A stretch of 64,000 nt of DNA from Myxococcota bacterium (GCA_965223415.1 OZ245002.1:5568001-5632000), one strand, 5' to 3'. Counted from the stretch's first letter, positions 13,054-25,311 are shown. The notes: a model not told the origin generated them from the sequence alone. Numbers and translations are program-made.

Positions 13054-13081
13054 GGCTGCCATAACCACTTTTATGAATGAC
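13054..13081. other. Degenerate Xer/dif-like site (left island boundary)
   Basis: GGCTGCCATAA-ccactt-TTATGAATGAC: 11-6-11 layout with CATAA-N6-TTATG core. Confidence 0.45.
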
Positions 13082-13127
13082 CAACAAGGGGCCAAGTTAG
13101 CCCCGAGGGGACCAGTCGAGACGACCA

Positions 13128-22386: not shown

Positions 22387-22867
22387 CAGTGGCCTCTCGC
22401 CGCTAGTCTCCGGCTTCATGACCAAGCCCGAAGCCGACTCCATCGACGACAGAATCCGGTTCGCCGCTCTCCGACTGTTCAATGAAAGGGGATATGGAGC
22501 GGCAACCGTCGAAGACATCGCGCGCGTGGCGGGCGTCGGTGTCGGCACGATTTACAGGCGATGGCCGGACAAGCCTGCGCTCGCCAACGAGCTCTACACC
22601 CTCGTGCTTGAGCGAGCCGCCTCCTACGATGCCCGCCAAGGCAAAGGGCGGGGAAAGAAGGGGCGCTTCCTCGGCCTCCTGCAGTCGTTCGCCGCTTTCG
22701 CGAAGGACGAGCCAGAAATGATGCTCTTCCTCGTCGCGCAGCCGCACAACGCGTATCTGGACCCGAAGAACCGACGAAGGCAGGCGGCGAAAGACGCGGA
22801 AACCTTGCAACTGGTGAGCGAGACCGGAGTCACTGCTTCTCCCGAGTTCGCCGCTGCAATGGTCCTA

Positions 22868-24079
22868 GTGTCCTGTTTCGGAAAAAAGTACGCAAAATAG
22901 TGCGAACTCCCAACGTGCAGGGGGCATCTTACCGGCATCACGTTGGGGGGACGTATGGCGAATCGTGGCCGGCCCAAGACGCCGATTGTGCTGACGGATG
23001 CGGAGCGAGAAGAGCTCCAGACGCACGCCAGAAGGCGGAAGAGCGCGCATCAGTTGGCCTACCGCTCGCGCATTGTATTGCTCGCAGAGCAGGGGCTGAC
23101 GAATGGGGAAATCGCGGAACGCGTAGGCAAGCGACGAGAGACCGTCGGGATCTGGCGCAAGCGCTTCGTCGAAAAGCGGATCGCTGGGCTCTACGACGAG
23201 CCCAAGCCGGGAGCGCCCCGGACGGTGACCGACGAGCAGGTCGATGAGGTCGTGCGCTTGACGCTAGAGGAAACGCCCACGGGAGCGACGCACTGGTCCG
23301 TTCGCCTGATGGCGAAGCGGGTAGGCCTCCCGACGACGACGGTTCATCGCATCTGGCGAGCATTCAGCCTCCAGCCGCACCGAGTCGAGCGCTTCCGGCT
23401 CTCCAACGATCCCCATTTTGTGGACAAGGTGGTGGATATCGTCGGCCTGTACATGTCTCCGCCGGCGAACGCGGTCGTCCTCTGCGTCGACGAGAAATCG
23501 CAGATCCAAGCGCTGGAACGGAACCAGCCTGTCTTGCCGATGCAACCGGGCCGGGCGGAGCAGCGCACACACGGATACCTACGCCATGGCACGACGACAC
23601 TCTTTGCCGCACTCAACATCGCAACGGGCGAAGTGATCGGATCCCTCCATCGCCGGCACCGCACGGAGGAGTTCCTGAAGTTCCTCAGGACGATCGACGA
23701 CAACGTACCCGCCGAACTCGACATCCATCTCGTGCTCGACAACTACACCACGCACAAGACGAAGCGAACTCGGAGCTGGCTCGCGCGCCACCCTCGTTTC
23801 CACGTGCACTTCACCCCGACGTACAGCTCATGGCTGAATCAGGTCGAGCGGTTCTTTGCACTCATCACCGAGCGTTGCATCCGTCGCGGCGTGCATCGCA
23901 GCACGAGGGCGCTCGAGAACGACATCCGGAGCTTCCTGAAGACGACGAACGACGATCCGAGACCCTTCGTCTGGACCAAGACCGCGGATCAGATCCTCGC
24001 GAGTGTGCGGCGCTACTGTGGTCGCGTCCTCGACGTCCACTCCGATTCTAATCGAGTGGTTTCTTCTGGAACAGGACAC
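22868..24079 (+). mobile_element. IS630-family insertion sequence
   Basis: IRs GTGTCCTGTT / AACAGGACAC; TA duplication within a CTAG target. Confidence 0.92.
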
Positions 24080-24082
24080 TAG
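22955..24082 (+). CDS. IS630-family transposase
   Basis: [30 protein letters not shown]; stop codon supplied by the target site. Confidence 0.93.
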
Positions 24083-24226
24083 GAACGATTGCTCAGTGTG
24101 TTCGGACTGGCGCCGATTTCGAAGCCGAGGACTTAGCGGAGCGGCTGTGGAGAGCGCTCTCTACGTAAAGAGCAGCCGCAGAAGGGTCAGCCCTGAGCTG
24201 CGGTTCTCACTTGACATTATGCGGCT

Positions 24227-25244
24227 CCTGCCTATCGGCTTCGCTCAGCTACCAGTCGGCGATACGGGAACGGCTCGCCCTGGACAGCGCGGTTGAGGAC
24301 GAAGCCGAAGAGCTCGCCTTCACGCCAACGCCGGTCGAAGCGATAGACGAACTCCGCGAGGTAGTGAGGGAGGTGCTTGCCGCTGACTCCGTGGAAGGTG
24401 CCCCGCAGCCAGGTCTTGAGGTTGCCGAAGACCCGGTGCACCCAGGGCAGGATCTCGGCCGACCGGTCGGGGTCCAATCCTTGGACCAGCCGTTCGTGCT
24501 GGACGCCGACCTTGGAGAGGCGGCGGTAGCCTTGGAAGCCATCGGTTCGCACCGTGGCATCGGTGGCGTCGATGACGCCGCGCACGAAGGGGCCGAGGTC
24601 GTGTTCGAAGGTGAGCCCCTCGATGACGGCAAGTCGAGCGCGACCTGCGCTGTGCTTCCGCTGCTCGACGGCTCCCGCCACGAGCGTCTTGCCCACGAGC
24701 ATGCGTCCACCCAGCAGGCCGCGTTCCGTTCCCCCCACGTAGCTCTCATCCGCCTCGACGAGGCCCGTGAGCCGATCCTCGGGGCGCGGCCCGAGGGCGG
24801 AGCGCAGCTTGTGGAGCATCGTCCAGGCTGTCTCATAGCTCCCGATCCCCGTGTCCCGTTGCAGCTGGAGCGCCGAGATTCCCTTCTTGTGGCGAGCGAG
24901 AAAGAAGATGGCCCAGAACCAGGTGAGCAACGGAACCCGGGTCGCATGGAAGATCGTCCCGGCGGTCACCGAGCACTGGTACCGGCAGCCTCGACACTGC
25001 TCGAGGCGCCGGGTCGAGATCCAACAGCTCTCTCGAGAGTCGCACCGAGGGCAAACGAAGCCCCGTGGCCACCGTACGTTTCGCAGCGCCTCCCAGCACG
25101 TTTCCTCGTCCGGGAATGTGGCCTGGAACTCCTGAAGCGTCTTCGGAAACCTCATCGCTCGGCCCTCCTCGGCTCAATCCAAGAGGAAGGTCCGATCTCT
25201 CCGTGACAGGGCCGGTCACGAGCTGAGCGAAGCCGATAGGCAGG
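24227..25244 (-). mobile_element. IS1595-family insertion sequence
   Basis: Perfect 24-bp IR CCTGCCTATCGGCTTCGCTCAGCT; 8-bp TSD ATGCGGCT (24219-24226, 25245-25252). Confidence 0.93.
24232..25155 (-). CDS. IS1595-family transposase
   Basis: Zn ribbon CPRC..CRGC, TAGTIFH, VEADESYVGG, RTDGFQGY, YLAEFVYRF. Confidence 0.93.
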   Translation of the reverse strand: MRFPKTLQEFQATFPDEETCWEALRNVRWPRGFVCPRCDSRESCWISTRRLEQCRGCRYQCSVTAGTIFHATRVPLLTWFWAIFFLARHKKGISALQLQRDTGIGSYETAWTMLHKLRSALGPRPEDRLTGLVEADESYVGGTERGLLGGRMLVGKTLVAGAVEQRKHSAGRARLAVIEGLTFEHDLGPFVRGVIDATDATVRTDGFQGYRRLSKVGVQHERLVQGLDPDRSAEILPWVHRVFGNLKTWLRGTFHGVSGKHLPHYLAEFVYRFDRRWREGELFGFVLNRAVQGEPFPYRRLVAERSR

Positions 25245-25311
25245 ATGCGGCTTATCGGACACAAACCGTTGAAATCAATGGCTTTATCAATGTCCGAGTG
25301 CGGCTCGAGCT

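Follow-up and report, generated by a model that had tools for sequence, protein, structure and literature searches.

Insertion sequences (IS) that settle repeatedly at Xer recombination sites are described for the ISAjo2/ISAba32 group of the IS1202 family, and its members, from Acinetobacter and others, are reported at plasmid pdif/xrs sites and at chromosomal dif (PMC10132070; bioRxiv 10.1101/2022.12.17.520857). The same reports give an IS length of 1.5 kb and a TnsB-like transposase of 441–457 aa, and present the Xer-targeted sites of the IS1202 family as often associated with mobile modules (PMC10132070; bioRxiv 10.1101/2022.12.17.520857). Insertion takes place in a single orientation and 5 bp away from the side of XerC, with a 5-bp duplication, and the site is left intact, which agrees with the statement in a first-pass annotation of the DNA studied here that a subset of IS1202-family elements target Xer sites and insert beside them (PMC10132070; bioRxiv 10.1101/2022.12.17.520857).

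In the present work, we examine a different kind of element, a member of the IS1595 family found in a dif-like site of a Myxococcota bacterium, within a 64,000-bp stretch of DNA (GCA_965223415.1, OZ245002.1:5568001–5632000) that is called the window in the following and in whose coordinates positions are given unless stated otherwise. We consider it very likely that this DDE transposon chose the centre of a secondary dif-like site, and that its sub-lineage selects such sites, the insertion being no accident. Elements of the IS1595 family are generally about 1 kb long, with one ORF and 8-bp duplications. To our knowledge, IS1202 is the only family on record as an IS family that hunts for Xer sites, and it spares the site; we know of no described IS1595-family specificity for Xer sites or LexA boxes. 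In the literature searched, which did not include the family's original description, no report links IS1595 elements to Xer/dif sites or LexA boxes. In the accessible text of an Acinetobacter review IS1595 is mentioned once and Xer terms occur, with no link between them visible, and in that of a Ralstonia IS survey the IS1595 family appears only in a table.

The IS in the window, as delimited by sequence and repeat searches, occupies positions 24227–25244 (1018 bp, minus strand) and is present in one copy in the 5,833,097-bp single-contig genome (71% G+C). Its only ORF is the intact transposase gene at 24232–25155 on the minus strand, which encodes 307 aa with a zinc ribbon and a DDE domain. 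The Pfam models Zn_ribbon_IS1595 (PF12760) and DDE_Tnp_IS1595 (PF12762) match with E-values of 4.6e-13 (49.3 bits) and 2.8e-29 (102.5 bits), respectively, and the NCBIfam model transpos_IS1595 (NF033547) with 194.7 bits at a cut-off of 75. The terminal inverted repeats were detected as 24226–24250 and 25221–25245, 25 nt long and 100% complementary; their certain length is 24 nt, the outermost T/A being ambiguous with the duplication. They are then located at 24227–24250 at the transposase-distal end, with the stop codon of the transposase inside the repeat, and at 25221–25244 at the transposase-proximal end. A direct repeat search gives a perfect 8-bp target site duplication, ATGCGGCT, at 24219–24226 and 25245–25252. 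The domains, the perfect 24-bp repeats, the single ORF in 1018 bp and the 8/8 duplication are all as in the IS1595 family in general.

Directly outside the duplication are the two arms of a split dif-like site. A XerD-type arm, ACTTGACATTA, is found at 24209–24219 (TAATGTCAAGT on the minus strand, to which the site is assigned), and a XerC-type arm, TTATCGGACAC, at 25252–25262 (GTGTCCGATAA on the minus strand). Each copy of the duplication takes in the 6-bp central region together with the terminal base of one arm before it and the initial base of the other arm after it. The first-pass annotation had read the empty site as an 11-6-11 arrangement with a duplication that covers the 6-bp spacer and extends by one base to either side, and both readings are exact. 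The left arm is unique DNA and does not belong to another IS, since the neighbouring multicopy IS630-type element (22865–24082, plus strand) stops at 24082, 144 bp from the split site, and the possibility that this arm is a piece of the adjoining IS630 was ruled out. With the IS between them, the two arms are separated by 1026 bp, and it is a sound inference from this arrangement that the insertion should inactivate the site.

Set beside the ISAjo2/ISAba32 group, the element is alike in being an IS with a DDE transposase that recurs at XerC/XerD sites. In contrast to that group, its transposase is an unrelated, 307-aa zinc-ribbon protein of the IS1595 type, with no TnsB-like domain found in it, encoded by a 1.0-kb IS. 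The insertion also differs from those of the group, in that it is central, has an 8-bp duplication, splits the site, and belongs to a set of insertions with no strict orientation.

For a comparison with the host's own dif, a pattern scan was made of 33 genomes of the bacterial family. The pattern is matched in 30 of them, nearly always as a single site with an AT-rich spacer, and 29 sites were extracted for arm matrices, with the consensus A[TC]GTCCGATAA-GATAGA-TTATGTCAAAT; dif consensus data have in this way been gained for an uncultured Myxococcota family. In the genome that contains the window, the chromosomal dif is at 4,823,244, the cumulative GC skew has its maximum at ~4.81 Mb, and this dif is conserved across the bacterial family. 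Scored by the family matrices over 11.67 million genome positions, the arms of the split site reach 19.1 (XerC-type) and 16.1 (XerD-type), each with p 4.3e-7. The XerC-type flank is one of only four genome positions scoring at least 19, and the XerD-type flank one of only four at 16 or above. With its two 11-bp arms and 6-bp central region, the reconstructed split site has the architecture of a XerC/XerD-type site and scores 35.1, second-best in the genome, the true dif having 45.5. Six intact sites score above 12, namely the true dif and five others, and there are none in reversed-sequence controls. A fuzzy search with the reconstructed 28-mer finds three similar places in the genome, one of them at 4,823,244, and a template scan returns the same three, with none in the reversed-sequence controls. 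The likeness to the host dif that the first-pass annotation had proposed to check is thus borne out. XerD-like and XerC-like genes are present in this genome, and the best matches to the XerD and XerC models have 328.0 bits (cut-off 329.6) and 300.4 bits (cut-off 335.15), respectively, both slightly under the curated cut-offs.

The possibility that the split site is the chromosomal dif itself was also considered. It can be ruled out, as the site is 769 kb away from the dif at the skew maximum, has a spacer rich in GC, and has no counterpart at the orthologous position of 11 relatives. Judged by its sequence, it is a dif-like site of the secondary kind and a putative XerC/XerD substrate. As a side observation, dnaA is located at 2.83 Mb, which gives a distance to dif of 1.99 Mb one way and 3.84 Mb the other, and the GC skew is irregular over 0–2.7 Mb; the uneven spacing and the irregular skew suggest large rearrangements in this IS-rich genome.

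We now turn our attention to the relatives of the element. Transposase relatives were gathered from one genome per species, from metagenome contigs, from the bacterial family and from the phylum, and the scored set consists of 39 loci on genome and metagenome contigs (54–94% transposase identity) and the window IS, with the ends anchored on the conserved end motif. Of their 67 IS ends, 3 were duplicates and 7 too short, leaving 57 scored flanks. The arms were scored by the matrices from the window's bacterial family also on the metagenome contigs, which are short. At a fixed register, in which the arm stops at the duplication's first base (±1 base), a dif arm is found in 17/57 flanks at a corrected p<1e-3 and in 22/57 at p<1e-2 with the window genome as background. 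When the loci's own non-IS DNA is used as background instead, the numbers are 16/57 and 20/57, respectively. By chance, ~0.06 and ~0.6 such flanks would be expected among the 57. The register is off by one base in three flanks, and three of the seven short flanks end in CGATAA at the fixed register.

Five elements from different genomes, the window IS, L116, L125, L050 and L249, share one identical register and a perfect 8/8 duplication, and each is bordered by a XerC-type arm at one end and by a XerD-type arm at the opposite end; L249, with 51% transposase identity, comes from a different Myxococcota family. The duplications of L124 and L120 are 6/8. The elements have no fixed orientation with respect to the site: in four of the five clean cases the transposase-proximal end adjoins the XerC-type arm, and L249 lies the other way round. 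The window IS falls, in the transposase tree, into a clade supported at 99%, and the five members of this clade (the window IS, L114, L049, L116 and L115) are all in dif-like sites, as are the L125–L128 clade, L050 and L120. It should be mentioned that about a dozen long-branch rows are misplaced in this tree, probably because of frameshifted ORFs, and that only well-supported clades were used.

The remaining 40/57 flanks are not dif-like at p<1e-3. They include sub-clades with other flanks (L117, L129, L130 and L133; L246, L247 and L250), and the perfect duplication of L012 is an 8-mer that is rich in AT and does not resemble dif. Because whole sub-clades and L012 are not dif-like, targeting is a property of some sub-lineages, the window's included. 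The first-pass annotation had suggested that the lineage targets Xer-type sites. The dif likeness of the homologues' sites favours such targeting, and for the sub-lineages that include the window IS the suggestion stands, with the five clean elements and the 17 flanks in register behind it; as a general rule for these relatives it does not. It is important to note that the enrichment overstates the raw preference, since the insertions that survive have been filtered by selection.

Some dif-associated copies (L114, L049, L127 and L131) have no clean duplication, with 1–3 of 8 positions matching. Later recombination between copies is proposed as the explanation for such missing duplications and for the shifted flanks, and could account for both. 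Among the relatives without dif-like flanks, no clean duplication was found in L117, L119, L129, L130, L133, L144 and the L118/L123/L142 group.

Three other observations were made on these relatives. In L118, L123, L142, L128 (one end) and L135, the two sides of the IS carry one common sequence, 30 nt or longer and in inverted orientation, which ends in a 14-bp perfect palindrome of the GCCGTAGCTACGGC type, and these flanks are explained neither by a simple 8-bp duplication nor by a longer inverted repeat. L246, L247 and L250 (Myxococcota genomes G257, G322 and G088; 54–58% identity) adjoin sequences that resemble their own end (..GGATAGGAATTTC beside TCTGCCTATCC..), with nested ends in L247, which looks like a targeting of end-like sequences. 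In Actinomycetes MAGs (L093, L097–L100 and L106), loci with a homologue of the transposase can be aligned over the full 3–4 kb, flanks included, at 82–91% identity between MAGs; the gene has a conserved position in the chromosome and could be immobile or domesticated.

What kind of site is hit can be seen from the spacers, which are mostly GC-rich (GCCGCA, CGGGTG, CGGGTT and TCCCTC), with GTAGCT in L050 as the exception; an AT-rich spacer of the dif type occurs in none of the hit sites. The dif-like sites are not made by the IS, because they are present in genomes that lack it: the genome G025 has at least seven secondary dif-like sites and no match to the IS, and similar multicopy sites occur in several IS-free relatives. 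In the window genome, two identical dif-like sites (genome positions 4182928 and 4185054; L040, 4928–7081) within ~90-bp direct repeats are on either side of a 2.1-kb segment with lower G+C, in which genes for a DinB-family protein and for a membrane protein are found. This module has a gene for a tyrosine recombinase ~2.4 kb outside it. Direct repeats with a dif-like core are likewise present in G025 (L237, C78), where they are 113 bp long and 2.0 kb apart, and in G003 (L238/L239, C1), where they are 107 bp long and 23.8 kb apart. All these module-bounding cores have a GC-rich spacer. Further intact dif-like sites are found 130–200 bp from the IS in L116 (963–990), L124 (~1913) and L139 (~639), with the same orientation in L116, which suggests that short arrays of dif-like sites may exist. 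From the secondary sites, the module-bounding repeats and the nearby extra sites, it follows that the IS hits accessory Xer-type sites linked to integrative modules.

The IS itself is not such a module. The known IMEX/dif modules use the same kind of site, and the family modules just described (2.0, 2.1 and 23.8 kb) are bounded by ~90–113-bp repeats with a dif-like core. However, such modules move by recombination and their site is regenerated, whereas the IS moves by transposition and the site is destroyed. In place of the two complete Xer sites that bound an IMEX/dif module, the window IS has half-sites and an 8-bp direct duplication at its ends.

A sister clade of the IS1595 family from Beta- and Gammaproteobacteria, with ~40% transposase identity and ends of the form ..GGGGTATCC..TTAGCTCCA, was analysed in the same way. 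It comprises the loci L055–L113 and L148–L193 from genomes and metagenomes, and L236 from a Ralstonia plasmid (AP024163.1). In 117 distinct flanks, drawn from 128 ends, the four bases directly beyond the 8-bp duplication read CTGT without a mismatch 88 times and with one mismatch a further 23 times. The flank consensus per position is ta-CTGT-ATATATAT, which we take to be the E. coli-type LexA box. By this consensus, the sister-clade IS are at the exact centre of CTGT-N8-ACAG sites that resemble LexA boxes, with the same geometry as in the dif case. The Ralstonia plasmid copy has the same LexA-box-like target, and the LexA-box clade and the dif-site clade are separate in the transposase tree.

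A Pfam scan of 135 flanking ORFs, taken from 58 loci with both IS ends and with 10 near-duplicate ORFs left out, places genes of the SOS regulon directly beside several copies of the sister-clade IS. In L071, umuD-umuC-like genes start 32 nt after the IS, Y-family polymerases are found in L092 and L187, the latter also with a SOS-response-associated peptidase (SRAP), and a dnaE2-like gene is beside the IS in L066. Integrase genes with Phage_int_SAM_4 and Phage_integrase domains, here taken to be of the integron type, adjoin the IS in L064, L177 and L082, and YafO in L060.

How the sites could be recognized is considered next. The perfect duplications show ordinary DDE transposition and rule out a Xer-mediated capture of the IS. 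We propose that the transposase, most likely as a dimer, would read the target DNA directly and make the 8-bp staggered cut that is usual for the IS1595 family at the exact centre of a secondary XerC/XerD-type site. The points of strand transfer are one base inside each 11-bp arm, and for this reason the duplication consists of the 6-bp central region plus one base per side. What is read would probably be the inner, partly palindromic [C/G][A/G]TAA-N6-TTA[C/T][C/G], together with further bases of the arms or the shape of the site. The motif [C/G][A/G]TAA is found in both arm types, equally far from the IS end, which suggests a symmetric reading by a transposase dimer. The inner motif has 4 exact and 38 one-mismatch matches in the window genome; 21 of these 42 fall outside coding-like DNA, and none but the true dif resembles a dif site. 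The motif is insufficient by itself: the transposase would have to read a larger part of the arms, or else respond to the site being bound or bent. Selection against hits in the essential chromosomal dif would be the reason why only secondary sites are seen.

It is established from Xer biochemistry that the phosphates attacked here are adjacent to the Xer cleavage points. Because of this proximity, and because one clean insertion is inverted, we favour direct reading of the DNA, combined with selection against hits in the true dif, over guidance by XerC/XerD, and regard it as probable, with some reservation.

Guidance by host proteins, in which the transposase would dock on site-bound XerC/XerD or on their bend and integrate centrally, is the strongest of the alternatives, and we judge it to be unlikely. 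The attacked phosphates, being beside the cleavage points, should be covered in the bound complex, and the clean insertion L249 has the opposite orientation, although the one orientation shared by four of the five clean insertions is what guidance would suggest. The conservation of the flanks spans the whole 11-bp arms with their XerC/XerD asymmetry, which exceeds the usual short consensus of a transposase and is more readily understood if bound proteins are involved. A contact between transposase and XerC has also been proposed for the IS1202 family (PMC10132070). The sister clade bears on this alternative in two ways, in that it strikes the centre of the LexA box, the operator of a different protein, with the same geometry, but LexA and XerC/XerD are unrelated and two separate protein contacts would have to evolve.

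It is quite improbable that there is no true specificity at all. In that case, a preference for a short AT-containing palindrome, rare at 66–71% GC, would act together with selection, and the survivors would pile up in dispensable dif-like sites. The equal placement of [C/G][A/G]TAA in the inner part of both arms would fit, as would the rarity of the exact motif in the window genome and the IS-rich, apparently dispensable stretch in which the window IS is found. However, with 42 sites at one mismatch or less, half of them outside coding-like DNA and none but the true dif being dif-like, the single copy nevertheless occupies the one additional dif-like site, and the four clean cases elsewhere are alike. 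In addition, much of the matrix score comes from the outer positions of the arms, beyond the short palindrome.

It is hardly credible that the half-sites are part of the mobile unit, either with the IS inside a Xer-mobilised module or as an IS circle integrated by XerCD: L114 does have XerC-type arms on both sides in inverted orientation, and the core CCGATA/TATCGG is common to the IS end and the XerC-type arm, but the five copies have perfect 8-bp direct duplications of differing sequence together with differing arms, which is the signature of DDE transposition and not of tyrosine recombination, the IS ends are below the half-site score thresholds, and dif-like sites exist in IS-free genomes. 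A related candidate, that the IS ends mimic Xer arms, was also rejected. The junction of XerC arm, spacer and IS end fits a loose template with 4/17 mismatches, and with ends below the half-site thresholds this is taken to be a coincidence or a minor rival.

Few insertion sequences are site-specific, and those that are can be of use as natural targeting systems. Here, a minimal 307-aa transposase unrelated to that of IS1202 strikes the centre of a Xer-type site to the base, and its sister clade appears to do likewise at LexA operators. The system is compact, and target choice can be compared between close relatives in order to find what reads the target. Such insertions would also provide a transposon route to switching off, or decoupling from control, Xer-dependent modules and SOS-regulated genes such as umuDC and integron integrases.

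More speculatively, this branch of the IS1595 family might consist of "operator-centre hunters", a possibility that we raise tentatively and do not yet believe. Every lineage would have as its target the midpoint of a two-armed site bound by a universal pair of DNA-binding host proteins, namely the XerC/XerD site in Myxococcota and the LexA box in Beta- and Gammaproteobacteria, with the 8-bp stagger spanning the spacer. Retargeting would have taken place within one transposase family, possibly by sensing of the protein-bound or protein-bent state and not of the sequence as such. If this were true, the target sites, which no genome lacks and which are frequent on plasmids, integrons and integrative modules, would offer a portable landing pad and a route of horizontal spread.

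Finally, we consider the surroundings of the insertion in the window. Between ~13700 and 25300 there are six back-to-back IS (IS3, two IS21 types, IS5/IS1182-type, IS630 and IS1595), of which the IS630-type element is the last of the five others that fill ~13.7–24.1 kb. This pile-up is flanked by a TetR/LolA-like/MacB cluster and by a gene for a htrA-like protease. The first-pass annotation had further proposed that the insertion locks an island in place. This idea is unsupported because no partner site was found: apart from weak matches in coding sequence, there is no partner dif-like site in the window at the half-site thresholds, and none nearby in the genome, where the nearest intact site scoring above 12 is ~174 kb off. 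Moreover, the DNA to the left consists of the five other IS, and in 11/11 relatives the DNA that follows the orthologous htrA-like gene downstream has no dif-like site, a comparison that says little about the empty site because the genomes are only ~65–76% identical there. At the left edge of the IS pile-up, at 13061–13088, we observe a member of a third family of two-armed sites (..CATAA-CCACT[TC]-TTATGA..), of which two other copies, at 1236783 and 1238693 in the window genome, bracket a tyrosine recombinase gene at 1.237 Mb.
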